Assembly: GCA_965237985.1 (NCBI GenBank)
Contig: OZ250161.1
Coordinates: 1,701,677-1,765,676, forward strand
Length of the DNA stretch: 64,000 nt
Origin: Candidatus Oxydemutatoraceae bacterium
Lineage (GTDB): Bacteria; Pseudomonadota; Gammaproteobacteria; Poriferisulfidales; Oxydemutatoraceae
Direction of reading: 5' to 3'
Each line of letters opens with the position of its first letter. Within the stretch, counting starts at the first letter, position 1. This document shows positions 7,415 through 58,515 of this stretch, piece by piece. The notes under the pieces were generated by a model, which did not search any database, was not told where the DNA came from, and saw nothing but the letters and a program-made list of their open reading frames with translations. The position numbers and the translations under genes were made by a program.

Positions 7415-8827
7415 TTAATCCTTGGTTTTCGCTGAAACAGGGCGGGGGCGTTTCCAGCTGCGTACCGTGTGCTGTTTGCTGCGCGAGATCGTCAGTTGTT
7501 CTTTTTCAACGTTGTGAGTGATGACGGAGCCTGCCCCGATCGTGGCACTTTTTCCGATGTGAACGGGGGCAATAATCTGGGTGTTCGAACCGACAAACAC
7601 ATCATCTTCTATGACCGTTTGATGTTTGCTTTTGCCGTCGTAATTGCAGGTGATGGTTCCTGCTCCGATGTTGACTTCCTTTCCCACCGTGCTGTCGCCG
7701 ATATAACTCAAGTGCCCGACTTTGCTGCTCCCGCCAATCCTGCTGTTCTTTATTTCCACAAAGTTTCCGACTTTCGCCGCTTCCCCCAGCACCGTTTCGG
7801 GCCGGATACGTGCATAAGGACCCAGGACACAGCCTTTGCCGCATTGCAGTGCATCAAGGTGGGAAAAGGCCTTGACTTGTGTGCCATCTTCCAGGGTCAC
7901 ATCCTTCAGGTAGCAGTAGGGGCCAATTTCCACGTCGTTCCCGAGCTTCACCTCGCCGACGAAAATTACGCCGACATCGACGCAGACATTTTCTCCTGCT
8001 TCCACATTCCCGCGAATGTAGAGATTATTGGAGTCTCGCAGACGCACCCCGGACTTGCGCAAAGCGGCGGCACGATCCTGGTAAATCCAGTGCTCCACGT
8101 GTTCCAGTTCTGCCAAAGTATTGACACCGCGTGCTTCCTCGGCATTTTCAATCTGGCAGGATGCTACCCGGTGTCCGCTCGCAACAGCAATGCCGATGCA
8201 ATCTGTCAGGTAGTACTCCGACTGGCGATTGTCATTTCGGACTCGTCGAATCAGTTGTTGCAGTTCGCCGGCCCGTGCTGCCACCACTCCGACGTTGACT
8301 TCCAAAATGGCTTTCTCTGCCGTGCTGGCATCGGCTTCTTCCACGATGCGCAATACCCGCCCGTCATCATCGCGCAACACTCTGCCGTAACCGTGCGGGT
8401 TTTCGAGAACAGAGGTCAGAAACACCAGTTCGGCATCGGCAAGCCTGCCCAGTACCGTGGCACAACACGCCGCGGTCAACAGCGGCATATCGGCATAGAG
8501 AACCAGTACCGGAAGATCGGGTTCAAGTTTTGGCAATACACAGGCGACGGCATGCGCTGTGCCGTGCCTTTCCTCCTGGCTGTGCCAGTGAATGGGAATC
8601 TTTTGAGGCCAGCTGGCGGTGTCGTTTTCAACTGCCGTGCGGAGCTGATCGGCGTGGTGGCCGAGGACCAGATGCAAGGCATCCGGTGCCAGTTGTGTGA
8701 TGGTGTCAAGCGTATACGCGAGCATGGGTTTTCCGGCCAGGTCCAGCAAAGGTTTGGGCCTGCTGGTAGCGGTTCGTTTGCCCTCGCCGGCGGCCAGCAA
8801 AATGACGGCTTTTCTCGTTTTATGCAT
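7415..8827 (-). CDS. glmU: Bifunctional UDP-GlcNAc pyrophosphorylase / GlcN-1-P acetyltransferase
   Basis: LLAAGEGKR..PKPL, hexapeptide LbH region GNFVEIK..HLSYIGD..GAGTITCNYDG, directly upstream of glmS. True start is ATG 8827; the longer ORF in the track runs into the repeat array. Confidence 0.97.
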   Translation of the reverse strand: MHKTRKAVILLAAGEGKRTATSRPKPLLDLAGKPMLAYTLDTITQLAPDALHLVLGHHADQLRTAVENDTASWPQKIPIHWHSQEERHGTAHAVACVLPKLEPDLPVLVLYADMPLLTAACCATVLGRLADAELVFLTSVLENPHGYGRVLRDDDGRVLRIVEEADASTAEKAILEVNVGVVAARAGELQQLIRRVRNDNRQSEYYLTDCIGIAVASGHRVASCQIENAEEARGVNTLAELEHVEHWIYQDRAAALRKSGVRLRDSNNLYIRGNVEAGENVCVDVGVIFVGEVKLGNDVEIGPYCYLKDVTLEDGTQVKAFSHLDALQCGKGCVLGPYARIRPETVLGEAAKVGNFVEIKNSRIGGSSKVGHLSYIGDSTVGKEVNIGAGTITCNYDGKSKHQTVIEDDVFVGSNTQIIAPVHIGKSATIGAGSVITHNVEKEQLTISRSKQHTVRSWKRPRPVSAKTKD

Positions 8828-11800
8828 TTTGGCTGGGGCAGCTGGCGGGCGGTCCGGTCCTTTTGTTCTGGCCACGTGTTGCTGCCTGGCTGTGCCAGTG
8901 AATGGGAATCTTTTGAGGCCAGCTGGCGGTGTCGTTTTCAACTGCCGTGCGGAGCTGATCGGCGTGGTGGCCGAGGACCAGATGCAAGGCATCCGGTGCC
9001 AGTTGTGTGATGGTGTCAAGCGTATACGCGAGCATGGGTTTTCCGGCCAGGTCCAGCAAAGGTTTGGGCCTGCTGGTAGCGGTTCGTTTGCCCTCGCCGG
9101 CGGCCAGCAAAATGACGGCTTTTCTCGTTTTATGCATTTTGGCTGGGGCAGCTGGCGGGCGGTCCGGTCCTTTTGTTCTGGCCGCGTGTTGCTGCCTGGC
9201 TGTGCCAGTGAATGGGAATCTTTTGAGGCCAGCTGGCGGTGTCGTTTTCAACTGCCGTGCGCGGAGCTGATCGGCGTGGTGGCCGAGGACCAGATGCAAG
9301 GCATCCGGTGCCAGTTGTGTGATGGTGTCAAGCGTATACGCGAGCATGGGTTTTCCGGCCAGGTCCAGCAAAGGTTTGGGCCTGCTGGTAGCGGTTCGTT
9401 TGCCCTCGCCGGCGGCCAGCAAAATGACGGCTTTTCTCGTTTTATGCATTTTGGCTGGGGCAGCTGGCGGGCGGTCCGGTCCTTTTGTTCTGGCCACGTG
9501 TTGCTGCCTGGCTGTGCCAGTGAATGGGAATCTTTTGAGGCCAGCTGGCGGTGTCGTTTTCAACTGCCGTGCGGAGCTGATCGGCGTGGTGGCCGAGGAC
9601 CAGATGCAAGGTATCCGGTGCCAGTTGTGTGATGGTGTCAAGCGTATACGCGAGCATGGGTTTTCCGGCCAGGTCCAGCAAAGGTTTGGGCCTGCTGGTA
9701 GCGGTTCGTTTGCCCTCGCCGGCGGCCAGCAAAATGACGGCTTTTCTCGTTTTATGCATTTTGGCTGGGGCAGCTGGCGGGCGGTCCGGTCCTTTTGTTC
9801 TGGCCGCGTGTTGCTGCCTGGCTGTGCCAGTGAATGGGAATCTTTTGAGGCCAGCTGGCGGTGTCGTTTTCAACTGCCGTGCGCGGAGCTGATCGGCGTG
9901 GTGGCCGAGGACCAGATGCAAGGCATCCGGTGCCAGTTGTGTGACGGTGTCAAGCGTATACGCGAGCATGGGTTTTCCGGCCAGGTCCAGCAAAGGTTTG
10001 GGCCTGCTGGTAGCGGTTCGTTTGCCCTCGCCGGCGGCCAGCAAAATGACGGCTTTTCTCGTTTTATGCATTTTGGCTGGGGCAGCTGGCGGGCGGTCCG
10101 GTCCTTTTGTTCTGGCCGCGTGTTGCTGCCTGGCTGTGCCAGTGAATGGGAATCTTTTGAGGCCAGCTGGCGGTGTCGTTTTCAACTGCCGTGCGCGGAG
10201 CTGATCGGCGTGGTGGCCGAGGACCAGATGCAAGGTATCCGGTGCCAGTTGTGTGATGGTGTCAAGCGTATACGCGAGCATGGGTTTTCCGGCCAGGTCC
10301 AGCAAAGGTTTGGGCCTGCTGGTAGCGGTTCGTTTGCCCTCGCCGGCGGCCAGCAAAATGACGGCTTTTCTCGTTTTATGCATTTTGGCTGGGGCAGCTG
10401 GCGGGCGGTCCGGTCCTTTTGTTCTGGCCGCGTGTTGCCTGGCGTGCCAGTGAATGGGAATCTTTTGAGGCCAGCTGGCGGTGTCGTTTTCAACTGCCGT
10501 GCGAGGAGCTGATCGGCGTGGTGGCCGAGGACCAGATGCAAGGCATCCGGTGCCAGTTGTGTGACGGTGTCAAGCGTATACGCGAGCATGGGTTTTCCGG
10601 CCAGGTCCAGCAAAGGTTTGGGCCTGCTGGTAGCGGTTCGTTTGCCCTCGCCGGCGGCCAGCAAAATGACGGCTTTTCTCGTTTTATGCATTTTGGCTGG
10701 GGCAGCTGGCGGGCGGTCCGGTCCTTTTGTTCTGGCCGCGTGTTGCTGCCTGGCTGTGCCAGTGAATGGGAATCTTTTGAGGCCAGCTGGCGGTGTCGTT
10801 TTCAACTGCCGTGCGCGGAGCTGATCGGCGTGGTGGCCGAGGACCAGATGCAAGGCATCCGGTGCCAGTTGTGTGACGGTGTCAAGCGTATACGCGAGCA
10901 TGGGTTTTCCGGCCAGGTCCAGCACCTGCTGGTGCCGGTTCGTTTGCCCTCGCCGGCGGCCAGCAAAATGACGGCTTTTCTCGTTTTATGCATTTTGGCT
11001 GGGGCAGCTGGCGGGCGGTCTGGTCCTTTTGTTCTGGCCGCGTGTTGCTGCCTGGCTGTGCCAGTGAATGGGAATCTTTTGAGGCCAGCTGGCGGTGTCG
11101 TTTTCAACTGCCGTGCGCGGAGCTGATCGGCGTGGTGGCCGAGGACCAGATACAAGGCATCCGGTGCCAGTTGTGTGACGGTGTCAAGCGTATACGCGAG
11201 CATGGGTTTTCCGGCCAGGTCCAGCAAAGGTTTGGCCTGCTGGTAGCGGTTCGTTTGCCCTCGCCGGCGGCCAGCAAAATGACGGCTTTTCTCGTTTTAT
11301 GCATTTTGGCTGGGGCAGCTGGCGGGCGGTCCGGTCCTTTTGTTCTGGCCGCGTGTTGCTGCCTGGCTGTGCCAGTGAATGGGAATCTTTTGAGGCCAGC
11401 TGGCGGTGTCGTTTTCAACTGCCGTGCGCGGAGCTGATCGGCGTGGTGGCCGAGGACCAGATGCAAGGCATCCGGTGCCAGTTGTGTGACGGTGTCAAGC
11501 GTATACGCGAGCATGGGTTTTCCGGCCAGGTCCAGCAAAGGTTTGGGCCTGCTGGTGCCGGTTCGTTTGCCCTCGCCGGCGGCCAGCAAAATGACGGCTT
11601 TTCTCGTTTTATGCATTTTGGCTGGGGCAGCTGGCGGGCGGTCCGGTCCTTTTGTTCTGGCCGCGTGTTGCTGCCTGGCTGTGCCAGTGAATGGGAATCT
11701 TTTGAGGCCAGCTGGCGGTGTCGTTTTCAACTGCCGTGCGCGGAGCTGATCGGCGTGGTGGCCGAGGACCAGATACAAGGCATCCGGTGCCAGTTGTGTG

Positions 11801-12368
11801 ACGGTGTCAAGCGTATACGCGAGCATGGGTTTTCCGGCCAGGTCCAGCAAAGGTTTGGCCTGCTGGTAGCGGTTCGTTTGCCCTCGCCGGCGGCCAGCAA
11901 AATGACGGCTTTTCTCGTTTTATGCATTTTGGCTGGGGCAGCTGGCGGGCGGTCTGGTCCTTTTGTTCTGGCCGCGTGTTGCTGCCTGGCTGTGCCAGTG
12001 AATGGGAATCTTTTGAGGCCAGCTGGCGGTGTCGTTTTCAACTGCCGTGCGCGGAGCTGATCGGCGTGGTGGCCGAGGACCAGATGCAAGGCATCCGGTG
12101 CCAGTTGTGTGATGGTGTCAAGCGTATACGCGAGCATGGGTTTTCCGGCCAGGTCCAGCAAAGGTTTGGGCCTGCTGGTAGCGGTTCGTTTGCCCTCGCC
12201 GGTTCGGCCCTCGCCGTTTTATGCGGCCAGCAAAATGACGGCTTTTCTCGTTTTATGCATTTTGGCTGGGGCAGCTGGCGGGCGGCCCTCGCCGGCGGCC
12301 AGCCGGTCCTTTTGTTGGCTGGCCGCGTGTTGTTCTGCCTGGCTGTGTTCCTGCCTGGCTGTGTTCCT
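8575..12368. repeat. Tandem array of about 12 copies of a ~310-312 bp unit (about 60 bp upstream plus the first ~84 codons of glmU)
   Basis: Unit starts cctggctgtgccagtgaatgggaatc at about 8575, 8885, 9195, 9507, 9817, 10129, 10437, 10749, 11051, 11362, 11674 and 11985. The final copy is scrambled at about 12200-12368. Copies differ by small indels and SNPs. Confidence 0.97.
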
Positions 12369-12392
12369 GAGTCGGTGCAGTCATATTGCAAA

Positions 12393-15260: not shown

Positions 15261-15283
15261 ATTCTAGATTTGGTCTGACGACA

Positions 15284-16726
<1,443 letters not shown>

Positions 16727-16957: not shown

Positions 16958-17119
16958 TCCCCCCTCGGTTGGTTAGCAATTTTGGTTGATGACAAACCCG
17001 CTATTCTATATCCGCTTAGGTCCTGGCGGCAAGTTTGGTGAATCGCGTCTGCGGGAAACATGATCATGTCCGCTTTTTCAGCCCATTGCTTCCCTGTTGG
17101 AAGCTGAAGTGTTGCTACC

Positions 17120-18966
17120 GGCTGCCAGGCTGCCGGAGGACGTGCCGTGGCCGGCGGTGCGCAATGTCGTCTCAGCGGGCGACTCTGTGCACGGGCGAAG
17201 TCTGGCGAGTGCCGTGCCGGAGGATGTGCCGCGGACCGGCGGTGCGCAATGTCGTCTCAGCGGGCGACTCTGCCTGCACGGGATTTCCGAAGTCTGGCGA
17301 GCTGCCAGGCCGCCGAGGACGTGTCGTGGACCGGCGGTGCGCAATGTCATCTCAGCGGGCGACTCTGCCTGCACGGGATTTCCGAGGACGTGTCTGGTGC
17401 GCTGCCAGGTTGCCGGAGGAGTCTGGCGAGTGCCGCGGGACCGGCGGTGCGCAATGTCATCTCAGCGGGCGACTCTGCCTGCACGGGATTTCCGAAGTCT
17501 GGCGAGCTGCCAGGCTGCCGGAGGATGTGCCGCGGACCGGCGTGTGCGCAATGTCATCTCAGCGGGCGACTCTGCCTGCACGGGATTTTCGAAGTCTGGC
17601 GAGCTGCCAGGCCGCCGAGGACGTGTCATGGGCCGGCGGTGCGCAATGTCGTCTCAGTGAGCGGCTCTGCCTGCACGGGATTTCCGAAGTCTGGCGAGCT
17701 GCCAGGTTGCCGGAGGATGTGCCGCGGACCGGCGGTGCGCAATGTCGTCTCAGCGGGCGACTCTGCCTGCACGGGATTTCCGAAGTCTGGCGAGTTGAGG
17801 TTGCCGGAGGTGTGCCGCGGACCGGCGGTGCGCAATGTCATCTGCGGGCGACTCTGCCTGCACGGGATTTCCGATGTCGGCGGTGCGCAATGTCGTCTCA
17901 GTCATCTCAGCGGGCGGCTCCACCTGCAACGGGATTTCCGAAGTCTGGCGAGCTGCCAGGCCGCCGAGGACGTGTCGTGGGCCGGCGGTGCGCAATGTCG
18001 TCTCAGCGGGCGGCTCTGCCTGCACGGGATTTCCGAAGTCTGGCGAGCTGCCAGGCCGCCTGTGCCGCGGGCCGGCGGTGCGCAATGTCATCTCAGCGGG
18101 CGACTCTGCCTGCACGGGATTTTCGAAGTCTGGCGAGCTGCCAGGCCGCCGAGGACGTGTCGTGGGGCGGCGGTGCGCAATGTCATCTCAGCGGGCGACT
18201 CTGCCTCGTGCCGGAGGATGTGCCGCGGACCGGTGGTGCGCAATGTCATCTCAGCGGGCGGCTCCACCTGCAACGGGATTTCCGAAGTCTGGCGAGCTGC
18301 CAGGCTGCCGGAGGACGTGCCGCGGGCCGGCGGTGCGCAATGTCATCTCAGCGAGCGGCTCTGCCTGCACGGGATTTCCGAAGTCTGGCGAGCTGCCAGG
18401 TTGCCGGAGGATGTGCCGCGGACCGACGGTGCGCAATGTCATCTCAGCGGCGGCTCTGCCTGCACGGGATTTCCGAAGTCTGGCGAGCTGCCAGGTTGCC
18501 GGAGGATGTGCCGCGGACCGGCGGTGCGCAATGTCATCTCAGCGGGCGGCTCCACCTGCAACGGGATTTCCGAAGTCTGGCGAGCTGCCAGGCTGCCGGA
18601 GGACGTGCCGCGGGCCGGCGGTGCGCAATGTCGTCTCAGCGAGCGGCTCTGCCTGCACGGGATTTCCGAGGTCTGGCGAGCTGCCAGGCCGCCGAGGACG
18701 TGCCGCGGACCGACGGTGCGCAATGTCGTCTCAGCGAGCGGCTCTGCCTGCACGGGATTTCCGAAGTCTGGCGAGCTGCCAGGTTGCCGGAGGATGTGCC
18801 GCGGACCGGCGGTGCGCAATGTCGTCTCAGCGGGCGGCTCTGCCTGCACGGGATTTCCGAGGTCTGGCGAACTGCCAGGCTGCCGGAGGACGTGCCGCGG
18901 GCCGGCGGTGCGCAATGTCATCTCAGCGGGCGACTCTACCTGCACGGGATTTCCGAAGTCTGGCGA
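17120..18966. repeat. Tandem array of about 20 copies of a ~96 bp GC-rich unit (95-97 bp, some internally deleted)
   Basis: Consensus ggcggtgcgcaatgtcRtctcagcgggcgRctctgcctgcacgggatttccgaagtctggcgagctgccaggYtgccggaggaYgtgccgcggRcc. The caatg motif recurs at 18529, 18626, 18721, 18817 and 18913. Confidence 0.95.
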
Positions 18967-19265
18967 CACGAGGGCGATACAGACCTGGAAGCAATGGTCG
19001 CGGAAAACCCGGCAAGCGGCGGCGGGGGAGGCAGTTCAAGCCATGTTCTGTGATCTTGGCATCGGGATTTGAGTCTCCTCTGGATGCCGCGTTTTCGGCC
19101 TGTACGAGCAAGATGATCAGGCACGATTGGTGGCACCGTCTGTCAGTTCGTCAAGGTCGTCGCTACCGTGACAATGGTGCACGGGCAAGCGTGGTTTCGT
19201 GTTGTTTGCCGCACCCGGCTACACGAGGAACGTGCAGCATGCGGGTTTGGCACCAGTTCGGTGTT

Positions 19266-22200
19266 TTATCTGACTACTCCGCTCAGAAACACTTTCAAGC
19301 GGAGCCTCACAACTTTCTGGCGTTCGACTGTCAGCATGATGTCGTTACTGCGTTCGCCGGCAGCAACGCGTACCATGAACATGGCCTCATCCAGGTCCCT
19401 CGGAACCAATAGTTTCAGCCTGGCTTGCCCGGCACCGTGGTTTTCCAGGAACTTTGCCGAGGTTCCTGATGTCGGGCCGCCAATCAGGCTCCAGGTCAAT
19501 CCGACGCGCGGCAGCAGGGTGTTCAGCGACACTACCAGGTCTTGGCTATGGGATGAAATGGTTTTGTTCAGGGGGGTGCTGTGGGCAAAAAGTGGGGCAG
19601 CGTCACTATTCTGCAGGCGTACAAATACCTGGTCTGTTTTGCCGCGGCCTTCCTCGCCGGCCACTTTGATTAAAAAACCAGTGCCGTCGATTTCCTCGCC
19701 AGAAAGCCTCGAATAGCGGACCAAGACTTCAGATGTCCCTGAAACCGTGTCTGAACTTTCCTCGCTGCTACCGTTCATAAAGTGCGCTACTGTGTAATCG
19801 CTGTAGGGATTTACAATCGTCCACACCCAGCTTTGCGGAGAGCCACCCTGGGCGACTGCGCGCAGAGTCACAGCCCGCGATTCTGGAGCGACATGCACGG
19901 TGACCTTGTCAGTTTCTAAAACTCCGTTGCCGGAAATTTCGCTGATCACCGGTGGCGCATCCACTTGGCGAACGATAACCCGTGTTTCAGCAGTGGCTCC
20001 CAGTGGGTCCCGGGTCGATACTGTGAATCCCCCCGTTGATTTTGATCCTTCCGGACGAGTGAACTGCACTTGGACGCTGGCGCCCGTGGCTCTTGTCGTA
20101 ATCTGGTTGTTGACCAAGAAGTTGAGCGTACTTTCTTCGGGCGTGCCCGCAATTCGCTGTGCAGACCACTCCAGCACATCCAGATCCTCCGGAACCTGGA
20201 CACCGGCAAGCAGTTCAAGGGATGCCCGACTGTCCTGTGTTGGGATGTCCAGATACCGTTCCCTCCCTCCCGATATGGTCGGAGGTTCACTCGGTGTTAC
20301 CAAAACCGTGATTTTGGCAGTTCCGTAGTTTCCCGTAACCCATACAAAAAATTGGTCATTTTCTCGAATTTCTTCCTTGGGCTGATACACCATGGTGGTC
20401 AGGGTGCCCGTTCCGGTGCTTGTGCAGGCGTTTTCATCCACGCCTGACAAAAAACAGATACGTCCTCTCTGCGGACCGGAATTCGGCGGAACCCACCATT
20501 CCAGGAAGTCCCTCCTGTCAGCCCGGGCACGCAAAGTCAAGGTCTTGCTCGATCTGTCGCCAGAAACCATACGCAGTATCGCTTCACCGTCAGACAGAAT
20601 CAGGGGTGGTGAGTCTGCCGCAGGTTGCGTGGTAAATGAATATTCTGTCATCGTTTTTCCCTCGTCGTTAGAGGTAGTGATGGCCACCCTGTGGCGGGAA
20701 TTACTTTGCAAACCTGGAAATTTTATTGTGATCTGGGGCAACTGATTGTCCAGGACTGAGGGGGTGCCCAAGGCAACTTTCCATTCTGCTATCGGCGTGA
20801 GATTGCCTTCCTGAAAAATCTGCAGGAAGTGTTCCAGGTTTGCATTTGTGCCGTTGGCTGCACCTTGGTTATAGCTGTCGTTTTTAGGAGCTGCCAGGGT
20901 GACATGCGTCTCCGTTACCCCTTCCCAAATCTGGATTTCAAGGGCTCTTGGCAAGTTCGGCAGACGAAAATGACCGGTTGCCGGATGACTCACCACTCCC
21001 ATCACTTTTGTGCGAACGGAATAGCTGACTGTGCTGCCGTTTTGGTATTCTGTTTGGATCCAAGCCAGGTGTTCATCGCGAATTTCAAAGCTTGTGGCAG
21101 TAACGTTTCGTACCAATCCTGAGATTTCCAGTTCGTGAAAGTCCACCAAAGATTCTGAACTTTGCCACTCCAATTTCAGCTTGGTGGAAAATTCCCACCT
21201 GGACACCAGCCCCTTTGGCGAAGCCGGGATCCTGGTCAGCCCGGTCAGTACGGGAAGCGTCCGGGCACTGCCAAAATGCCAGGACTCTGCGCTCCAGCCG
21301 GAATATGTCGCGGCTTCTTCGCACTTGCTGTCTGGCTTCGTCGGGCATTGCAGCTGTTTCAGAGTGCGTGGGAAGCTTTCCCGAATGTCTCCAGTGCTTA
21401 TGTCACCGATATTGGTGCCCGCGAAATCGTGTGCCAAAACCGTTCCGGCAACCTTGCCTGCCGAATAGCTGTAGCTGATGGACCACAGGTTGTATCCCGC
21501 AAAGCCACCTACCCAACGGTTTCCTTGTATGAATCCGGATGCGTAGCTGCCTGTGACTGTGGAGTTTGAAAAGTTCACGCCCACGAAACCACCCACCCGT
21601 TCATTTCCTGAAACCCTGCCGGTTGCGTAACTGTTGGCAATTTGTCCGTTGTTCACACCGACAAAGCCACCCAGATTGTGACTTCCTGAGACTGGGCCAG
21701 TCGCGTAGCTGTGGGTGATGAGGCCAAAGTTATTGCCTGTATGACCTCCCATGAAGCTGTTGAACGAAGCAGCCACAGGGCCTGGTCTGGGGTTCCCACG
21801 AACAGCTCCGGTCGCGTAGCTGTAGCTGATGTGGCCAAAATTAGCCCCCACGAGCCCCCCGGCGTCGCCATTTCCTGTGACCGACCCCGTGGCATAGCTG
21901 CGGGTAATGGTCCCCTGACGGTTTCTACCCACCAGACCGCCAATCTGTCGCGACAAACTGACCACCTTGCCAGTCGCGTAGCAACCAAGAATGTGCCCGC
22001 CAAGGTTGTCGCCTGCAAAGCCACCTACCCGGGAGGCATTGCCGCTTACCTGACCGGACGAAGAACTGTTTTTGATGGTGTTGACGTTCTGCCCGACAAA
22101 GCCGCCCAGCATGAAGGCAGAGGCCTTCTCAGTCCGCACCACCACGTGGCTGTGGCTGTTACTGATGATGCCTTCGTTCTTCCCCACCAGGCCGCCTGCC

Positions 22201-28363: not shown

Positions 28364-28424
28364 CTTCGTCCCGCTGTCTGCTTCGCATTTGCGATTGGAT
28401 TTTCGGGTGCTCTGGTGACGACAA

Positions 28425-30105: not shown

Positions 30106-30392
30106 AAGCAATCCTGTGAGCGTAATATATCAAAGTAATGGCAACTCCGGCACCCGGATTTTGTGCGACCTGTGAGCAACATGCACAGGTTTGCTGCGAA
30201 GCCAGCGGTTGCCGTGTCCAAATTTTTCTTCATGAGGCTGAGGAATGGTTCTGAAGGGCTGACCTTCGTTCCTCGGTAAAGGGTCAGCCAGATCTCGGAC
30301 GACCCGCAGGACTGAGTCATCAATGGCCGCCAAGCGCGGGGAACTTCGATAAAAGCATAACCCTCGACGTAACAAGTGCTGAATTCTATGCC

Positions 30393-42357: not shown

Positions 42358-42762
42358 GTGTTATACGGGGTTTTGCTTGGGTTTGATGCTGTTCTGGCCG
42401 TAGTTTTGATCACGCTTATTCTGGTTCAAAGGGGTCGGGGGGCGGAAGTAGGTGCTGCTTTTGGTGCCGGTGCGTCCGCATCTGTTTTCGGCGCGCGCGG
42501 AATGGTGTCGTTTTTGACCAAACTGGTGGCGGTGCTTTCCGCAGTGTTTTTACTGAACAGTTTGCTTCTGGCTTACGTGGCCAACCGTGATTTCGTTTCC
42601 CAAAGCGTGACCGAGCAGAGTGTTGTCGAGGAAAGAAGCGAGGTCGATCAGAAGATTGACTCCGAATTGGAAGCATTGCATCCGGAAGCGGTACCTGATG
42701 CAACTTTGGCTGAGGACGTTCCCGGCTCGGCACCATCGCCGATTCCTAAAATTCCCGATTAG
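42358..42762 (+). CDS. secG: Preprotein translocase subunit SecG
   Basis: LILVQRGRGAEVGAAFGAGASASVFGARG...FLTK; located between tpiA and tRNA-Leu. Confidence 0.95.
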   Translation: MLYGVLLGFDAVLAVVLITLILVQRGRGAEVGAAFGAGASASVFGARGMVSFLTKLVAVLSAVFLLNSLLLAYVANRDFVSQSVTEQSVVEERSEVDQKIDSELEALHPEAVPDATLAEDVPGSAPSPIPKIPD

Positions 42763-42764
42763 AA

Positions 42765-42850
42765 GCCGATGTGGTGGAATTTGGTAGACACGCTGTCTTG
42801 AGGGGGCAGTGGCGAAAGTCGTGCCGGTTCGAGTCCGGCCATCGGCACCA
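42765..42850 (+). tRNA. tRNA-Leu (GAG), first copy
   Basis: GCCGATG...CATCGGC-A-CCA acceptor stem, anticodon arm CTGTC-TTGAGGG-GGCAG, long variable arm and GGTTCGAGTCC T-arm. Canonical position after secG. Confidence 0.97.
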
Positions 42851-42930
42851 GTTTAAGCAACGTGATTGACGCGAAGTCGGATGAGTGCTTTCTCGATGCC
42901 GTCGCCGATTCCTAAAATTCCCGATTAGAA

Positions 42931-45487
42931 GCCGATGTGGTGGAATTTGGCAGACACGCTGTCTTGAGGGGGCAGTGGCGAAAGTCGTGCCGGTTCGAGT
43001 CCGGCCATCGGCACCAGTTTAAGCAACGCGATTGACGTGAAGTCGGATGAGTGCTTTCTCGATGCCGTCGCCGATTCCTAAAATTCCCGATTAGAAGCCG
43101 ATGTGGTGGAATTTGGCAGACACGCTGTCTTGAGGGGGCAGTGGCGAAAGTCGTGCCGGTTCGAGTCCGGCCATCGGCACCAGTTTAAGCAACGCGATTG
43201 ACGCGAAGTCGGATGAGTGCTTTCTCAAATGCCGTCGCCGATTCCTAAAATTCCCGATTAGAAGCCGATGTGGTGGAATTTGGCAGACACGCTGTCTTGA
43301 GGGGGCAGTGGCGAAAGTCGTGCCGGTTCGAGTCCGGCCATCGGCACCAGTTTGACCGATTGACGTGAAGTCGGATGAGTGCTTTCTCAAATGCCGTCGC
43401 CGATTCCTAAAATTCCCGATTAGAAGCCGATGTGGTGGAATTTGGCAGACACGCTGTCTTGAGGGGGCAGTGGCGAAAGTCGTGCCGGTTCGAGTCCGGC
43501 AACGCGATTGACGCGAAGTCGGATGAGTGCTTTCTCGATGCCGTCGCCGATTTCCAAAGTTCCCGATTAGAAGCCGATGTGGTGGAATTTGGTAGACACG
43601 TTGTCTTGAGGGGGCAGTGGCGAAAGTCGTGCCGGTTCGAGTCCGGCCATCGGCACCAGTTTAAGCGACGCGATTGACGCGAAGTCGGATGAGTGCTTTC
43701 TCGATGCCGTCGCCGATTCCTAAAATTCCCGATTAGAAGCCGATGTGGTGGAATTTGGCAGACACGCTGTCTTGAGGGGGCAGTGGCGAAAGTCGTGCCG
43801 GTTCGAGTCCGGCCATCGGCACCAGTTTAAGCAACGCGATTGACGTGAAGTCGGATGAGTGCTTTCTCGATGCCGTCGCCGATTTCCAAAGTTCCCGATT
43901 GGAAGCGATGTGGTGGAATTTGGTAGACACGTTGTCTTGAGGGGGCAGTGGCGAAAGTCGTGCCGGTTCGAGTCCGGTCATCGGCACCAGTTTAAGCGAC
44001 GCGATTGACGCGAAGTCGGATGAGTGCTTTCTCGATGCCGTCGCCGATTCCTAAAATTCCCGATTAGAAGCCGATGTGGTGGAATTTGGCAGACACGCTG
44101 TCTTGAGGGGGCAGTGGCGAAAGTCGTGCCGGTTCGAGTCCGGCCATCGGCACCAGTTTAAGCGACGCGATTGACGTGAAGTCGGATGAGTGCTTTCTCA
44201 AATGCCGTCGCCGATTCCTAAAATTCCCGATTAGAAGCCGATGTGGTGGAATTTGGCAGACACGCTGTCTTGAGGGGGCAGTGGCGAAAGTCGTGCCGGT
44301 TCGAGTCCGGCCATCGGCACCAGTTTAAGCAACGCGATTGACGCGAAGTCGGATGAGTGCTTTCTCGATGCCGTCGCCGATTTCCAAAGTTCCCGATTAG
44401 AAGCCGATGTGGTGGAATTTGGCAGACACGCTGTCTTGAGGGGGAAGTGGCGAAAGTCGTGCCGGTTCGAGTCCGGCCATCGGCACCAGTTTAAGCAACG
44501 TGATTGACGCGAAGTCGGATGAGTGCTTTCTCAAATGCCGTCGCCGATTCCTAAAATTCCCGATTAGAAGCCGATGTGGTGGAATTTGGCAGACACGCTG
44601 TCTTGAGGGGGCAGTGGCGAAAGTCGTGCCGGTTCGAGTCCGGCCATCGGCACCAGTTTAAGCAACGTGATTGACGCGAAGTCGGATGAGTGCTTTCTCA
44701 ATGCCGTCGCCGATTCCTAAAATTCCCGATTAGAAGCCGATGTGGTGGAATTTGGCAGACACGCTGTCTTGAGGGGGCAGTGGCGAAAGTCGTGCCGGTT
44801 CGAGTCCGGCCATCGGCACCAGTTTAAGCGACGCGATTGACGCGAAGTCGGATGAGTGCTTTCTCAAATGCCGTCGCCGATTTCCAAAGTTCCCGATTGG
44901 AAGCGATGTGGTGGAATTTGGCAGACACGTTGTCTTGAGGGGGCAGTGGCGAAAGTCGTGCCGGTTCGAGTCCGGCCATCGGCACCAGTTTAAGCAACGT
45001 GATTGACGCGAAGTCGGATGAGTGCTTTCTCGATGCCGTCGCCGATTCCTAAAAACTCCCGATTAGAAGCCGATGTGGTGGAATTTGGCAGACACGCTGT
45101 CTTGAGGGGGCAGTGGCGAAAGTCGTGCCGGTTCGAGTCCGGCCATCGGCACCAGTTTAAGCAACGTGATTGACGCGAAGTCGGATGAGTGCTTTCTCAA
45201 ATGCCGTCGCCGATTCCTAAAATTCCCGATTAGAAGCCGATGTGGTGGAATTTGGCAGACACGCTGTCTTGAGGGGGCAGTGGCGAAAGTCGTGCCGGTT
45301 CGAGTCCGGCCATCGGCACCAGTTTAAGCAACGTGATTGACGCGAAGTCGGATGAGTGCTTTCTCGATGCCGTCGCCGATTCCTAAAATTCCCGATTAGA
45401 AGCCGATGTGGTGGAATTTGGCAGACACGCTGTCTTGAGGGGGCAGTGGCGAAAGTCGTGCCGGTTCGAGGCCGGTCATCGGCACCA
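42931..45487 (+). tRNA. 16 additional tRNA-Leu(GAG) copies (about 10 structurally intact, the others with stem mutations or deletions)
   Basis: Copy 5 lacks the 3' acceptor strand. Copies 8 and 14 lack a 5' C. Copy 11 has an anticodon-stem mismatch. Copies 6, 8 and 14 carry a C>T in the anticodon stem. Copy 17 has T-arm changes. Confidence 0.88.
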
Positions 45488-45660
45488 GTTTAAGCAAAGC
45501 GATTGACGCGAAGTCGGATGAGTGCTTTTTGGCGTTCGTCTGTTGGCAGATTGTCAGCGCCGGGTGCTTCCCTCCAATGCGCCTTTCATGACACTTTGCA
45601 GCTCGCCTGCTCGCCTGCTTGCCTGCATGCCTGCTTTCTGGTTTCCCACAATCCAGCGCA

Positions 45661-46479
45661 GCCGACAATGAGCCAGGGCAGTTGCTTGACGAGGCGATCT
45701 GTCGGCTGGTTCGCCCGGGGATTTCTCGTCCGCAGGGGGTGGTTTGTAGCGTTGCGCCGGTTCCAGTTTCCATACCAAAGGAAAGAACGCAGCAGGGTCT
45801 GCCTGCAACTGCCGACCAGCCTGCTTTCCCCCACCTTTGGTGAATCAGGGTTTTGTGCCTAGTTGCGGCGGTGCGGTTGGGTTGAGCAAGTCCCGCGGGT
45901 ACAGCTGCCGGCTGGTGAGCCGTTCGCGTGCTGCCGACAATGAGCCAGGGCGGTTGCTTGACGAGGCGATCTGTCGGCTGGTTCGCCCGGGGATTTCTCG
46001 TCCGCAGGGGGTGGTTTGTAGCGTTGCGCCGGTTCCAGTTTCCATACCAAAGGAAAGAACGCAGCAGGGTCTGCCTGCAACTGCCGACCAGCCTGCTTTC
46101 CCCCACCTTTGGTGAATCAGGGTTTTGCGCCTAGTTGCGGCGGTGCGGTTGGGTTGAGCAAGTCCCGCGGGTACAGCTGCCGGCTGGTGAGCCGTTCGCG
46201 TGCTGCCGACAATGAGCCAGGGCGGTTGCTTGACGAGGCGATCTGTCAGCTGGTTCGCCCGGGGATTTCTCGTCCGCAGGGGGTGGTTTGTAGCGTTGCG
46301 CCGGTTCCAGTTTCCATACCAAAGGAAAGAACGCAGCAGGGTCTGCCTGCAACTGCCGACCAGCCTGCTTTCCCCCACCTTTGGTGAATCAGGGTTTTGT
46401 GCCTGGTTGCGGCGGCGCGGTTGGGTTGAGCAAGTCCCGCGGGTACAGCTGCCGGCTGGTGAGCCGTTCGCGTGCTGCC
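45661..46479. repeat. Tandem array of 3 copies of a 272 bp unit
   Basis: gccgacaatgagccagggc at 45661, 45933 and 46205; the array ends at about 46479. Confidence 0.95.
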
Positions 46480-46847: not shown

Positions 46848-48320
46848 ATGCATGATTTTCTAGATTTGTCAATTTGGGAATACTCGCTGATTATTTTTGC
46901 TGTAGTGCTGGTTTCCAAACTGTTCAGCAAGAAAACAAGAACTGTTGATGTGCTGTGGTTCATTGTGGCGGGGGCCGTGCTCACGAACCTCGACCTGTTG
47001 CCGGAGCATAATGAATTTCTGGAAACCATCGGTGAATGGGGAATTGTGTTCATCATGTTTGCTCTTGGTCTCGAGGAGGATCTGGGGCGTTTTTCGCAGG
47101 GACTGAAGCGTTGCATGGGCATCGCTTTGATCGGTGCGGCATTTCCGTTTCTGGCTGGTTACTCAACGGCCAGCATATTTGGCTACGACCATGGTTCCGC
47201 TATGCTGTGGGGGCTGACAATGACTGCAACTGCGGTCAGTCTGACGATGATGAGCCTGCGCGGCGACTTTATGCATCGGTCCACGGCAGCGACGGGGATT
47301 ATGACGGCCGCCGTAGTTGACGACGTATTGTCCCTGATTGGCGTTGCGATTCTTATTCCGATCATTTTGGTAAGTGCCGCCGACGACGGTGCCGGTGCGA
47401 TAAGTTTTACGGAAATTCTGTGGATCTGTTTCAAGGTCATCATCTTTTTTGCCATTACTTTGTTTATGGGGCTGGTCGCCTTTCCTGAGCGCACTCCGAA
47501 GAAACTGCCTCCGAACCCAAGTCTTTACCAGAGGCTTGATTACCAGGTCAGCCGTGCGATGGGCTTCTTGGGCGCAAGACGGTTCTTAATGTTGCACAAG
47601 GGTGAGTTCACGCCTCTGATAATGCTTTTTATCGCAATGTTTCTAGGCGTTACGGCGCATAAGCTCGGATTCCACCCCGCCATCGGTGCTTACTTTGCTG
47701 GATTGTTTCTGCATTCCGACTATTTTGTGAACGTGAAAATCAAAAGGACCCGCAACGAGGAAGGGGAAGTCATCGAGGAAGAAGAGAGGGATGACCAGTT
47801 CGAAAAAACCAGATATGTGATTGAGCATTTAGCCTTCACGATTTTTGGTCCAATCTTTTTCGTCAATCTGGGCGGCAAGCTGGTATTCGATGTCGATGTG
47901 ATGCTAAAGGCACTGCCGGTGGTTGCTGTCCTCTATCTTGCAGTCGTTGTTTTTCAGATCCTTTCGGCTACTTTGGCAGCGCGCTTTACGGGTGGATACA
48001 AGTGGCACGAAGGTGTGATGATTGGTTTCGGCATGCTGGGTCGGGCGGAACTGGCCTTTATTGTGATCGACATTGCTTTTGTCGATCACAAGATTATTGA
48101 TGTCACCCAGTTTTATGTTTTGATGATCACCGCGTTTTTGCTGAACATCACGGTGCCGCTCAGTCTCAAATGGTGGAAGCCCTACTATTTGGGCTTCAAG
48201 CGGCTCAGTGTTCTTGGTGTCTGCCTGTCCCGTCCAGAACCGGCACCCGTTCCGACGGATATGCCTGAGTACCGTGACATGATGGATGAAGAGCGAAAGC
48301 GGTATCTGAAAGACGATTAG
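46848..48320 (+). CDS. Cation:proton antiporter (CPA2/NapA-like Na+/H+ exchanger)
   Basis: Multi-TM protein with MFALGLE, TATAVS, AAVVDDV, IGAYFAGL, PIFFV and GMLGRAELA. RBS ACAGGTG upstream. Confidence 0.9.
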   Translation: MHDFLDLSIWEYSLIIFAVVLVSKLFSKKTRTVDVLWFIVAGAVLTNLDLLPEHNEFLETIGEWGIVFIMFALGLEEDLGRFSQGLKRCMGIALIGAAFPFLAGYSTASIFGYDHGSAMLWGLTMTATAVSLTMMSLRGDFMHRSTAATGIMTAAVVDDVLSLIGVAILIPIILVSAADDGAGAISFTEILWICFKVIIFFAITLFMGLVAFPERTPKKLPPNPSLYQRLDYQVSRAMGFLGARRFLMLHKGEFTPLIMLFIAMFLGVTAHKLGFHPAIGAYFAGLFLHSDYFVNVKIKRTRNEEGEVIEEEERDDQFEKTRYVIEHLAFTIFGPIFFVNLGGKLVFDVDVMLKALPVVAVLYLAVVVFQILSATLAARFTGGYKWHEGVMIGFGMLGRAELAFIVIDIAFVDHKIIDVTQFYVLMITAFLLNITVPLSLKWWKPYYLGFKRLSVLGVCLSRPEPAPVPTDMPEYRDMMDEERKRYLKDD

Positions 48321-54673: not shown

Positions 54674-54675
54674 CT

Positions 54676-55360
54676 GAAAACCGGTTTTGGAAACGAAGGA
54701 ATGAAAATGTTTGATTACGTCGTTGTTGGTGCCGGGTCGGCGGGTTGCGTCTTGGCAAATCGTTTGAGCGAAGACCCAAATGTGAGCGTGCTGCTCTTGG
54801 AAGCCGGTGGCAATGACCGGAGCATCTTCATCCAGATGCCGACGGCTCTTTCAATATCCATGAATATGAAGTTTTACGACTGGTACTTCGAGACCGACCC
54901 GATGGAAAAACCGGTTTTGGAAACGAAGGAATGAAAATGTTTGATTACGTCGTTGTTGGTGCCGGGTCGGCGGGTTGCGTCTTGGCAAATCGCTTGAGCG
55001 AAGACCCAAATGTGAGCGTGCTGCTCTTGGAAGCCGGTGGCAATGACCGGAGCATCTTCATCCAGATGCCGACGGCTCTTTCAATACCCATGAATATGAA
55101 GCGCTACAACTGGCACTTCAAGATCGCCCCGGTGGAAAAACCGGTTTTGGAAACGGAGGAATGAAAATGTTTGATTACGTCGTTGTTGGTGCCGGGTCGG
55201 CGGGTTGCGTCTTGGCAAATCGCTTGAGCGAAGACCCAAATGTGAGCGTGCTGCTCTTGGAAGCCGGTGGCAATGACCGGAGCATCTTCATCCAGATGCC
55301 GACGGCTCTTTCAATACCCATGAATATGAAGCGCTACAACTGGTACTTCGAGACCGACCC
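54676..55360 (+). repeat. Tandem triplication of a 230 bp unit (RBS plus first ~67 codons of betA); gives two 77-aa truncated copies at 54701-54934 and 54931-55164
   Basis: atgaaaatgtttgattacg at 54701, 54931 and 55161. Confidence 0.96.
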
Positions 55361-56855
55361 AGAGCCATATTGCAATGATCGCCGGATGCATGTCCCGCGC
55401 GGCAAGGTCATTGGTGGGTCATCTTCGATCAATGGCATGGTTCATGTACGCGGTCATTCCTGTGATTTCGATGGCTGGCAGGAACAGGGCGCGGACAACT
55501 GGGGCTATCGCCACTGCTTGCCTTATTTCCGCCGTGCCGAAACCTGGATCGGTGGTGGCGACGACTATCGTGGTGATCACGGTCCACTTGGCGTTTGCAA
55601 TGGCAATGGCATGAAATTAAACCCGCTTTATCAGGCATTCATCGATGCCGGTGTTGAAGCGGGATATGGTGCTACAGAGGACTACAACGGTTATCGCCAG
55701 GAAGGATTCGGCCCCATGCATATGACCGTCAAGAATGGGGTGCGCGACTCTGCCGCCAATGCCTATCTCAAGCCTGTCATGCGTCGAGCGAATCTGAAGG
55801 TGATCACACAAGCTCTCACCACTCGTATCGTTCTGGATGACAAGAAGGCAACTGGTGTCGAATATACCCGTGGCGGCAAGACGAGTATCGTCAAGGCAAA
55901 CCGGGAAGTTCTCCTTGCGGCCGGTTCGATTGGCTCGCCTTGGATTCTCCAGCTTTCCGGCATCGGGCCCAGACAGGTTCTTGAGGAGGCCGACATCGAG
56001 CTCAGGCATGACCTTCCGGGAGTTGGGGAGAATCTTCAGGACCATCTGGAAGTCTACTTCCAGTATCGTTGCAAACAGCCGATCACGCTGAATGGCAAGC
56101 TGGGCCTGATCAGCAAAGGCTTGATCGGGATGCGCTGGTTCCTTTTCAAAAGCGGCCTTGGCGCGACGAACCACTTTGAGTCCTGTGCCTTTATTCGTTC
56201 CCGGGCGGGGGTGAAATGGCCGGACATTCAGTATCACTTCCTGCCCGCGGCGATGCGGTACGATGGCCAGGCTGCTTTTGACGGCCATGGCTTTCAAGTT
56301 CATGTCGGACCGAACAAGACAGAGTCCCGTGGCAGGGTCCAGATCAAATCAGCTGATCCGCATGAGAAGCCCAGCATTCTCTATCGCTACCTGATGTCTG
56401 AAGAAGACCGGGCAGACTGGTGCAGAGTCATCAGACTCACACGGGAAATCATTATGCAGCCAGCGATGGATTCCTATCGCGGTGGGGAGATCCAGCCGGG
56501 CAAGGACGTTCAAACGGATGCCGAAATCATCGCGTGGGTTCGCGAAAATGTGGAAAGTGCCTACCACCCTTCGTGCACCTGCAAGATTGGTTCGGATGAT
56601 GATCCCATGGCAGTGCTGGATTCTGAATGTCGGGTCCGCGGGATTCAGAACCTGCGTGTCGTTGATTCATCCATATTCCCCACCATCACAAACGGAAATC
56701 TCAATGTGCCAACGATCATGGTCGGTGAAAAAGCGGCGGATTTGATTCGCGGGCGCGAGCCCCTGGCGCCATCGAATGTGCCATCATGGGTTGATCCCGA
56801 ATGGCGGACGCGGCAAAGGCAGGGGCAGCCAAAGAGACCGCCGGTTGTTTCCTGA
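55161..56855 (+). CDS. betA: Choline dehydrogenase (GMC oxidoreductase)
   Basis: [46 protein letters not shown] and AYHPSCTCK. Follows betB. Confidence 0.95.
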
Positions 56856-56908
56856 CGAGCCAACCTGAGCTTTCGTCGCTGACCCTGAAAGACTTTCGGT
56901 CTGTGCCT

Positions 56909-58515
56909 GTACGAACCTGGGCATAACCCTCCACTCACTACGTGCCGTGGCTGTCGCAGGCAGCGCGGGCGACACCGCAATCAGAAGCCGTAGCGACGGT
57001 CAGTGCGTGCGTCGCGCCTGTCGTTATGGTGGTAAACCATCGCAGACATCCCTGGAGCAGTGCTTTCTCAGGATACCAGGGCCGGGTGGTCCGGGGTTTT
57101 TGAGGCTGTGCAACGCGTTTGACCAGATGCCGGTGGGTGGATCCTGCCAGTGCGGACCGCTCGATGAGATGGTGCCGTACGAACCTGGGCATAACCCTCC
57201 ACTCACTACGTGCCGTGGCTGTCGCAGGCAGCGCGGGCGACACCGCAATCAGAAGCCGTAGCGACGGTCAGTGCGTGCGTCGCGCCTGTCGTTATGGTGG
57301 TGAACCATCGCAGACATCCCTGGAGCAGTGCTTTCTCAGGATGCCAGGGCCGGGTGGTCCGGGGTTTTTGAGGCTGTGCAACGTGTTTGACCAGATGCCG
57401 GTGGGTGGTTCCTGCCAGTGCGGACCGCTCGATGAGATGGTGCCGTACGAACCTGGGCATAACCCTCCACTCACTACGTGCCGTGGCTGTCGCAGGCAGC
57501 GCGGGCGACACCGCAATCAGAAGCCGTAGCGACGGTCAGTGCGTGCGTCGCGCCTGTCGTTATGGTGGTGAACCATCGCAGACATCCCTGGAGCAGTGCT
57601 TTCTCAGGATGCCAGGGCCGGGTGGTCCGGGGTTTTTGAGGCTGTGCAACGTGTTTGACCAGATGCCGGTGTGTGGTTCCTGCCAGTGCGGACCGCTCGA
57701 TGAGATGGTGCCGTACGAACCTGGGCATAACCCTCCACTCACTACGTGCCGTGGCTGTCGCAGCGCGGGGGGCGACACCGCAATCAGAAGCCGTAGCGAC
57801 GGTCAGTGCGTGCGTCGCGCCTGTCGTTATGGTGGTGAACCATCGCAGACATCCCTGGAGCAGTGCTTTCTCAGGATGCCAGGGCCGGGTGGTCCGGGGT
57901 TTTTGAGGCTGTGCAACGTGTTTGACCAGATGCCGGTGGGTGGTTCCTGCCAGTGCGGACCGCTCGATGAGATGGTGCCGTACGAACCTGGGCATAACCC
58001 TCCACTCACTACGTGCCGTGGCTGTCGCAGCGCGCGGGGCGACACCGCAATCAGAAGCCGTAGTGACGGTCAGTGCGTGCGTCGCGCCTGTCGTTATGGT
58101 GGTAAACCATCGCAGACATCCCTGGAGCAGTGCTTTCTCAGGATGCCAGGGCCGGGTGGTCCGGGGTTTTTGAGGCTGTGCAACGTGTTTGACCAGATGC
58201 CGGTGGGTGGTTCCTTCCAGTGCGGACCGCTTGATGAGATGGTGCCGTACGAACCTGGGCATAACCCTCCACTCACTACGTGCCGTGGCTGTCGCAGCGC
58301 GGGGGGCGACACCGCAATCAGAAGCCGTAGCGACGGTCAGTGCGTGTGTCGCGCCTGTCGTTATGGTGGTGAACCATCGCAGACATCCCTGGAGCAGTGC
58401 TTTCTCAGGATACCAGGGCCGGGTGGTCCGGGGTTTTTGAGGCTGTGCAACGTGTTTGACCAGATGCCGGTGGGTGGTTCCTGCCAGTGCGGACCGCTCG
58501 ATGAGATGGTGCCGT
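56909..58515. repeat. Tandem array of 6 copies of a 267-268 bp unit between the convergent betA and choX2
   Basis: gtacgaacctgggcataacc at 56909, 57177, 57445, 57713, 57980 and 58247. Confidence 0.96.

Follow-up and report, generated by a model that had tools for sequence, protein, structure and literature searches.

Seven tandem arrays with long units that are unrelated between loci lie in a stretch of 64,000 nucleotides (nt) of Candidatus Oxydemutatoraceae bacterium (assembly GCA_965237985.1, contig OZ250161.1, positions 1,701,677 to 1,765,676 of the forward strand), hereafter called the window. The genome to which the window belongs (G000) is a single contig of 2,000,500 bp with a guanine-plus-cytosine (GC) content of roughly 52%. 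It is 95% complete as judged by marker genes, and the extremes of its cumulative GC skew are separated by about half a genome. The host lineage is a genus of sponge-associated gammaproteobacteria in a sponge-symbiont clade. Two other chromosome-level genomes of the same genus were available for comparison, G001 (3.0 Mb, filed as uncultured candidatus Porisulfidus sp.) and G002 (1.92 Mb, filed as Candidatus Oxydemutatoraceae bacterium), and the GlmS proteins of these nearest genomes are 86% identical to GlmS of the window.

Arrays were defined with Tandem Repeats Finder (TRF) as repeats with a period of at least 50 bp and a length of at least 300 bp. The seven arrays reported in a preliminary description of the window were all reproduced by TRF; their combined length is 12,126-12,233 bp, which amounts to 19% of the window. 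In the following list, unit sizes, copy numbers and percentages of matching positions are TRF values, and strands are given where they apply.

5573-7402: glmS, downstream of glmU
7415-8840, minus strand: glmU, intact (start approximate; open reading frame readable to 9019 or 8875)
8575-12202: array 1, 312 bp, about 11.7 copies, 98% matches
17121-19073: array 2, 96 bp, about 20 copies, 73% matches
27854-28459, minus strand: dctQ, flanking array 3
28426-29168: array 3, 155 bp, about 4.7 copies, 91% matches
29110-30111, minus strand: phosphotransferase gene, flanking array 3 on the other side
42358-42762, plus strand: secG, intact, with its stop codon 27 nt into array 4
42736-45528, plus strand: array 4, 166 bp, about 17 copies (16.8), 95-98% matches
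45661-46479: array 5, 272 bp, 3.0 copies, 98% matches, intergenic
54677-55360, plus strand: array 6, 230 bp, 3.0 copies, 96% matches
55161-56855, plus strand: betA (GMC oxidoreductase), intact, with its start in the last unit of array 6
56903-58515: array 7, 267 bp, 6.0 copies, 97% matches, beginning 48 bp after the betA stop codon

Pfam searches confirmed the flanking genes glmS, glmU, dctM, dctQ, tpiA, secG, betB, betA and a gene for an OpuAC-type binding protein. Units of four arrays straddle the edge of a gene, as had been read from the sequence at the outset. The unit of array 1 consists of the 5' coding end of glmU (about 240-265 bp) and about 50-70 bp upstream of it, and the array starts inside the glmU open reading frame (ORF). 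Homology of the glmU region to G001 and G002 ends at 8840-8841, and the longest ORF (534 aa) has its nucleotidyltransferase domain from residue 72 onward. The units of array 3 hold a diverged segment of the dctQ N-terminus (local alignment score 50, versus a maximum of 24 in 100 shuffles). In array 4, the unit contains, in this order, the last 27 nt of secG, a spacer, a tRNA-Leu(GAG) gene and a second spacer. The unit of array 6 begins 4 bp past the betB stop codon and comprises the betB-betA spacer and about the first 195-200 nt of betA, including its start codon and N-terminus. Array 5 lies upstream of a Na+/H+ exchanger gene (46848-48320).

Array 2 has a gltD-like gene and a gene for a GLUG-motif protein as neighbours and is itself without a Pfam match. 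The TRF call proper spans 17121-18966 with 19 copies, and one TRF row extends to 19073. ORFs spanning arrays 2 and 7 match no Pfam family above the cut-off. All three forward frames are open over 525-672 codons in the region 17035-19412 (plus strand), with starts at 17035, 17147 and 17835, ends at 19053, 19072 and 19412, and no Pfam match; this stretch is missing entirely from both congeners. The neighbouring GLUG-motif gene (19266-22781, minus strand) encodes 1171 aa, and parts of it match dozens of places in G001 (at 297-440 kb and 2.10-2.57 Mb) and several in G002. These matches look like large repetitive surface-protein gene families and may be part of the extra megabase of G001.

At the read level, k-mer contigs were built independently from two runs of one sample, which may be the source of the G000 assembly itself; they bear on the array borders and leave the copy numbers unverified. 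The contigs end at 17130 and 28491 and begin again at 18938 and 29111, respectively, in agreement with the borders of arrays 2 and 3. Inside these two arrays, contig pieces of 65-96 nt have a word depth 2-3 times that of the flanks. With TRF, a shuffled control of 400 kb contained 0 bp of such arrays, and 50 kb of Escherichia coli K-12 contained no such array.

Extent in the genome and placement relative to genes

The window is dense in arrays but is not a special region. TRF detected 165 arrays of at least 300 bp in the whole genome, 161 of them with a period of at least 50 bp, and these 161 cover 176,814 bp, or 8.8% of the chromosome. They have a median period of 220 bp (quartiles 149-288), a median copy number of 3.9 and a median of 95% matches (5th-95th percentile 79-99%). 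Array lengths range from 0.3 to 7.4 kb, and the arrays are distributed evenly around the whole chromosome, at 2-15 per 100 kb. Unit sizes form a hump, with periods of 100-299 bp in 115 of 257 arrays. The wide range of divergence noted among the window arrays has its counterpart at the genome scale, where array identities extend from 67% to 100%.

Several familiar classes of repeats do not account for these arrays. Dispersed mobile repeats (insertion sequences, miniature inverted-repeat transposable elements, repetitive extragenic palindromes or bacterial interspersed mosaic elements) were rejected, as one unit was not found at many loci: only 12 of 12,880 pairs of arrays have related units, nearly all of them neighbouring arrays. 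Arrays of clustered regularly interspaced short palindromic repeats (CRISPR) were rejected, as units of 96-312 bp abut without spacers. Coding repeats of repetitive proteins were rejected for the seven window arrays and for most others, as 101 of the 161 periods are not multiples of 3; a minority of 22 in-frame arrays inside ORFs does have this feature.

A few arrays stand apart by their arrangement or unit size. Four arrays sharing a 148-151-bp unit lie about 3 kb apart, nested in a repeat of about 3 kb (G000:C1:1082254-1091286), and the arrays at 62717 and 65263 have a unit in common. A 14-bp unit is repeated about 105 times over 1.5 kb with 88% matches (G000:C1:1829691-1831179), a size class unlike the rest.

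Genes were called with a home-made codon-bias caller, which is crude and over-extends 5' ends in places. By these calls, 73% of the genome lies in genes anchored outside arrays and 18% in non-array intergenic DNA. Relaxed TRF settings raised the array share only to 9.6% of the genome overall and to 3.1% of the remaining intergenic DNA, so that most spacer DNA cannot be claimed as decayed arrays. The GC content is 54.7% in arrays, 51.5% in genes and 50.8% in other intergenic DNA, and longer and older arrays are richer still in GC (Spearman correlation with percent matches -0.36).

For the analysis of placement, arrays were collapsed to one unit each, and 200,000 random units of the observed sizes were dropped on the collapsed genome. 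Of the random units, 59-60% fell wholly inside a gene, versus 4-19% of the observed arrays. The lower value (6 of 161, P = 7e-52) was obtained with genes anchored outside arrays, and the higher one (31 of 161, P = 3e-26) with genes called on the collapsed genome, which avoids circularity; this latter set wrongly counts glmU as internal, through its over-long ORF. Periods were divisible by 3 in 22 of the 31 arrays inside genes (p = 2e-5), versus 38 of the 130 arrays elsewhere. The statement that no gene interior is interrupted thus holds in the window and does not strictly hold genome-wide, where 6 to 31 of the 161 arrays lie inside ORFs.

One array lies in a dead gene. The remnant of recQ (G000:C1:622171-623161, outside the window) carries in-frame TGA stops and an array of 5.9 copies of a 92-bp unit with 96% matches, and this out-of-frame array derives from the helicase-motif coding sequence of recQ itself. 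Interior arrays are therefore tolerated in a dead gene: arrays do form inside genes, and they stay once the gene no longer matters.

Among the 155 arrays outside gene interiors, the non-disruptive positions also differ from the null (chi-square p = 2e-6). Wholly intergenic arrays made up 48% (32.5% expected) and arrays at a 3' edge 26% (20% expected), versus 16% at a 5' edge (22% expected) and 8% spanning both edges (18% expected). In direct comparison, 25 arrays straddle a 5' edge and 40 a 3' edge, against a null of 52:48 (p = 0.03). It had been proposed that gene boundaries are the amplified target. The placement simulation rules out such targeting, since edge-straddling is not enriched among the harmless positions; survivorship takes its place. 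The placement pattern is what purifying selection leaves, with 5' and operon-junction duplications costlier than 3' or intergenic ones. It was correct that one intact gene copy is always left. This is no special feature, because a duplication spanning a gene end necessarily leaves the gene intact, and it follows from this geometry together with selection.

Distribution among relatives and turnover

With the same TRF settings, we sampled 200 kb each from G001 and G002 and 100 kb each from eight more distant genomes of the family or order. The G001 sample contained 29 arrays (16% of the sequence), 18 of them with periods divisible by 3; the 16% is inflated by coding repeats, as two of the sampled stretches lie within clusters of large repetitive genes. 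The G002 sample contained 7 arrays (4.3%). The eight distant genomes had 0-6 arrays each, all but two with periods divisible by 3, and these in-frame arrays are probably coding repeats. Counting only arrays with a period that is not a multiple of 3, there were 5.0 per 100 kb in G000, 5.5 in G001 and 2.0 in G002, versus 2 arrays in the 800 kb from the eight distant relatives. From this contrast in rates, the trait belongs to the genus. This agrees with the earlier suggestion of a long-running process in the lineage and not a local oddity, as both congeners carry arrays of their own that differ from those of G000.

The window is syntenic with G001 at 581-645 kb and with G002 at 1038-1087 kb, and none of the seven window arrays is present in either genome. 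Short single-copy spacers are found in their place. The glmU site measures about 270 bp in both congeners versus 3.6 kb in the window, and the unit of array 1 is absent there. For array 2, the site measures about 160 bp in both relatives versus 2.2 kb in the window, and for array 3, 41-43 bp versus about 800 bp. The stretch with arrays 4 and 5 measures about 240 bp in G002 versus 3.9 kb in the window, and array 5 has no counterpart in G001 or G002. The segment repeated in array 6 is single-copy in G002, and the corresponding junction in G001 holds a different duplication, derived from the 3' end of betB. Conversely, the syntenic stretch contains eight arrays of its own in G001 and two in G002, at other gene junctions.

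Arrays at or just after the 3' end of betA occur in all three species, with unrelated units (window 56688-58515; 58649-59488 in G001 and 44419-45059 in G002, as positions in the joined syntenic stretch). This stretch could be a hot spot at which arrays recur, or else a single array of great age that has diverged completely. Elsewhere in G001, partial tandem copies of the 3' end of glmS and the 5' end of dnaQ (G001:C1:576214-578688 and 1632811-1633626) form gene-edge arrays at loci that are single-copy in G000.

The evidence for turnover is presence or absence between species, and the age of the arrays can be set against the species divergence. At the fourfold-degenerate sites of 12 orthologues, identity between G000 and either congener was 65%, versus a median of 95% for array copies. 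Array copies are thus far more alike than the fourfold sites of the species, which indicates that arrays come and go more quickly than the species diverge.

These data also bear on whether the arrays could be artefacts of assembly, amplification or strain merging. In favour of an artefact, the genome is a metagenome-type single contig, and the read-level evidence consists of contigs. Against it, gene interiors are depleted of arrays (p <= 3e-26) and most of the arrays within ORFs keep the frame; an artefact would be blind to genes, which rules out faulty assembly as the source of this pattern. Array copies differ by substitutions of which some are shared and some private, and the spectrum of these is AT-biased. 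Three separate genomes of the genus show the trait at different loci and eight relatives do not, and the independently built k-mer contigs end at the very borders of arrays, inside which the word depth is raised. All seven arrays are confirmed as real, and the chance that an artefact explains them is, in our judgement, very small.

Origin and persistence of the arrays

The boundaries of the arrays point to how they begin. Among arrays with at least 94% matches, 78 of 106 have a near-whole copy number (within 10%), and after exact refinement of the boundaries, 51 of 110 arrays leave a remainder of 0-12 bp. Whole copies with such short remainders indicate that a discrete segment was duplicated between very short homologies. 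No motif was found at the 110 left and 110 right boundaries (at most 0.09 bit per position; best 6-mer z = 3.8).

The variants within arrays point to how they grow. In 35 arrays with six or more copies, 342 of the 621 variant sites were shared by several copies and 279 were private. Carriers of shared variants were clustered in a few arrays, and over-dispersed and alternating (higher-order) in four. Edge copies were slightly more diverged than inner ones (91.6% vs. 92.5%, p = 0.026). Since shared variants outnumber private ones, an origin in a single burst is ruled out, and rolling-circle amplification in this form, one of the candidates named in the preliminary description, is contradicted. 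Private changes are AT-biased (157 GC>AT versus 91 AT>GC), despite the GC-richness of the arrays, which rules out GC-biased conversion as the reason for their high GC content.

A dedicated molecular system, such as a site-specific recombinase, rolling-circle or reverse-transcriptase copying, or a mobile element, would be compatible with the hump in unit sizes at 100-300 bp and with the observation that copies within an array are about equally diverged from each other, as burst-like copying could produce both. The lack of a boundary motif, units that are unrelated between loci, and the excess of shared over private variants all speak against it. Furthermore, Ku, an ATP-dependent ligase domain and RVT_1 were not found in any of the three genus genomes, in line with the earlier remark that no reverse transcriptase is visible, and non-homologous end joining and reverse transcription were rejected on these grounds; HUH/Rep proteins and tyrosine or serine recombinases were not searched for. 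We consider a dedicated system very unlikely.

The three families above were searched as markers of alternative mechanisms, alongside 16 repair and replication families. In G000, recA, mutS, mutL and xseA scored over the cut-off, recJ is full length and just below it, and a match to SbcD also remained below the cut-off. Genes for recO, recR, dnaQ, a UvrD-like helicase and an AddA/RecB-like helicase-nuclease are present as well. No sbcB/ExoI was found in any of the 11 genomes searched, including array-free ones, so that its absence is uninformative. Two genes stood out. In G000, recQ survives only as the pseudogene described above, and the search for it gave no hit in G001 and just a weak one in G002. 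A stand-alone 5'-nuclease of the Xni/ExoIX type, about 300 aa long, occurs in 13 of the 16 family genomes that lie outside the genus, and none was found in the three genus genomes. RecQ suppresses illegitimate recombination in E. coli, and flap-nuclease defects (yeast rad27 and E. coli polA 5'-nuclease mutants) give duplications flanked by short repeats.

The accumulation of arrays could be attributed to a lost repeat-suppressing function, with RecQ and the stand-alone flap nuclease as candidates, and the junction remainders of 0-12 bp fit the signature of a flap defect. Neither loss is specific to the genus, however: recQ was not found in G004, G005, G007 and G019, nor the stand-alone flap nuclease in G013, G011, G014, G019, G020 and G022. 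G019 lacks both and had 0 arrays in 100 kb, and the six arrays of G013, which is without the flap nuclease, all have periods divisible by 3. In addition, the 5'-nuclease domain of DNA polymerase I is kept in all genomes searched, G000 included, and the other repair genes listed above are present. The expectation of a missing repeat-resolving function was thus not borne out by the 16 families, none of which showed a genus-specific loss, and we regard this explanation as unlikely. Coding density as a marker of relaxed selection, again from the crude gene caller, was 0.74-0.82 in the genus and 0.76-0.89 in the relatives, and these overlapping ranges do not set the genus clearly apart.

The tRNA array deserves separate consideration. 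ARAGORN detected 16 tRNA-Leu(GAG) copies in array 4, and one further unit has a 19-nt deletion. These are 16 of the 60 tRNA genes of the genome, in which nearly every other anticodon is single-copy. By Rfam scores, 13 of the 17 units reach at least 40 bits as tRNA (12 of them 46.7-49.1), two are marginal and one is below the gathering score. Across the 17 units, substitutions occupy 10 of 1447 cells in the tRNA part versus 45 of 1342 elsewhere (odds ratio 0.20, p = 3e-7, with cells that are not independent), so that the tRNA segments vary about 5-fold less than the remainder of the unit. G001 and G002 have one tRNA-Leu(GAG) gene each at the syntenic site. CUU and CUC make up 28.5% of Leu codons in G000, versus 30.8% in G001 and 30.0% in G002, that is, there is no shift to CUY. 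The tRNA copies look constrained, or harmful when mutated, and there is no sign of adaptation to them.

The abundance, tRNA scores and low variability of the tRNA genes speak for selective maintenance of arrays in a regulatory or dosage role, be it that promoter or 5'-end arrays act as a dial on expression or that array 4 raises the supply of tRNA-Leu(GAG). Against this, arrays at 5' edges are under-represented relative to 3' edges, the glmU array yielded no sigma-70-like or other promoter-like site, the two congeners share none of the seven arrays, the codon shares of the one-tRNA congeners are no lower than that of G000, and units are unrelated between loci and lie beside genes of unrelated function. 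The idea of a copy-number dial on expression, put forward before, is not supported by these data, and we judge selective maintenance to be improbable. Most arrays are tolerated junk, and the tRNA-Leu array is the sole case with copies that look constrained.

Taken together, the observations are probably best explained by a genus-wide mutational regime, with microhomology-mediated local duplication, re-amplification among copies, selective purging and fast turnover. At birth, a misalignment in the course of replication or repair, either independent of homology or mediated by microhomology, would turn a local segment of about 100-350 bp into two head-to-tail copies; this could happen at any place in the chromosome. 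The variant patterns suggest that arrays would then grow by misaligned exchange or re-slippage, which would add, remove and re-duplicate units and blocks of units and so give rise to mosaic and higher-order structure. Selection removes gene-breaking arrays, and the survivors are intergenic, gene-end-straddling or in frame, as is shown statistically by the placement analysis. Copies finally diverge by ordinary AT-biased point mutation and are lost, such that no array outlives a species split. The hump in unit sizes might, speculatively, reflect enough homology to re-align combined with the rising cost of longer units. The likeliest cause within the genus would be a raised ratio of birth to loss in a population that is restricted to hosts and weakly selected, to which the losses of RecQ and of the stand-alone flap nuclease may have contributed.

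Several observations do not sit well with this proposal. No genus-specific gene loss or gain was found, so that the cause stays conjectural. Similarity is flat with distance along an array (92.3% for adjacent copies and 92.1% for copies at least three apart, p = 0.78), which is at odds with simple stepwise slippage, as this predicts a fall. Many arrays of two or three copies have lasted to 3-5% divergence despite the presence of recA, recO, recR, recJ, mutS and mutL. The reduced variability of the tRNA part of array 4 implies that not every array is neutral, and the arrays just 3' of betA in all three species hint at a site preference. The excess of wholly intergenic arrays may reflect a mutational preference or genes missed by the crude caller. 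Boundaries also fold slightly more stably than background (-13.2 vs. -11.9 kcal/mol, p = 2e-4), and their GC content is higher too; hairpins were rejected as the cause of the arrays, given that this difference in folding energy is weak and confounded by GC.

Comparison with known systems and significance

The closest precedent is Ehrlichia ruminantium, and the present genus is an independent member of a rare class of repeat-accumulating bacterial genomes. In E. ruminantium, roughly 8% of the genome consists of repeats, with units around 150 bp, and partial gene duplicates occur. Both organisms have a small host-associated chromosome with low coding density and long intergenic regions full of tandem repeats, and the many independent non-coding arrays of the Ehrlichia type are found here as well (161 arrays covering 8.8%, with the crude gene caller). 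We know of no 16-copy tRNA array from Ehrlichia. Three reports describe expansion and contraction in E. ruminantium as targeted at tandem repeats in non-coding DNA (PMC10710844, PMC3159434, PMC7343930). That organism is, however, an alphaproteobacterial obligate intracellular pathogen with about 29% GC (PMC7343930), versus a gammaproteobacterium with about 52% GC here, and its variation is between strains, whereas here it is seen only between species.

In Portiera aleyrodidarum BT, the published account describes expanded intergenic DNA with tandem repeats, no deletion bias and structural instability, and a sister lineage without these features (PMC3673631). As in our case, a repeat-rich intergenic state is found in one symbiont lineage and not in its relatives. 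The repeats of Portiera consist of microsatellites, which show a spike at 7 bp, and a single variable tandem segment of 6.1 kb, and the state coincides with the loss of dnaQ and many repair genes (PMC3673631). Here, in contrast, units are 100-350 bp long, and dnaQ, mutS, mutL and recA are present.

In more ordinary genomes, a 2025 survey of prokaryotes gives a mean tandem-repeat coverage of 2.1%, with enrichment up- and downstream of genes (PMC12418385). As that survey shows non-coding enrichment, the direction of the bias in our genome is ordinary, but its density is not. Microhomology-mediated tandem duplications are a further comparison (PMC8639346). The present arrays share with such duplications, and with loci of variable numbers of tandem repeats (VNTRs), the head-to-tail arrangement, a few bases of junction homology, reversibility and a mostly non-coding location. 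Local single-copy source segments and whole copies with short homology at the outer junctions, as in VNTRs or minisatellites, were also found. The mycobacterial interspersed repetitive units (MIRU) are a bacterial example of this kind. Ordinary genomes hold a handful of VNTR loci, however, as opposed to 161 loci covering 8.8% here, with units of at least 50 bp and strict TRF settings.

Eukaryotic satellite and minisatellite DNA resembles the arrays in its mosaic and higher-order structure, diverged edge copies and birth-and-death turnover. It differs in that the arrays described here have no shared family, a unit of their own at each locus and a short length, with no evidence of a chromosomal role. 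In Entamoeba, tRNA genes lie within tandem units that make up more than 10% of the genome (PMC2652664). No literature report of the trait was found for Porisulfidus, Oxydemutator or any sponge symbiont, in a search that covered few subscription journals and no supplements.

A more far-reaching version of the proposal, which we put forward only tentatively and think rather less than probable, is that a heritable, lineage-specific regime, arising from a change in replication or repair outside the families tested, creates arrays of 100-350-bp units faster than deletion removes them, and that some arrays, like the 16 tRNA-Leu genes, have been co-opted for dosage. If this is true, the genus would hold the bacterial equivalent of satellite DNA, its three sister species would differ several-fold in array load, and it would offer a natural setting in which to learn how bacterial genomes normally stay clear of such DNA.

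There are practical consequences as well. Short-read metagenome-assembled genomes of such lineages will collapse the array loci, and ORF callers will report spurious genes inside arrays, as in the 96-bp, glmU and betA arrays.

Bacterial genomes are held to be compact because deletions outpace insertions and DNA without a function is removed. A rare exception is found here, in a free-standing chromosome of 2 Mb in which about 160 young and mutually independent arrays of long units take up nearly a tenth of the length. The case illustrates how raw material in the form of gene-end fragments, additional start regions and additional tRNA genes comes about, and three comparable closed genomes, together with array-poor relatives, offer a way to ask what sets the balance between the birth and the loss of such DNA.

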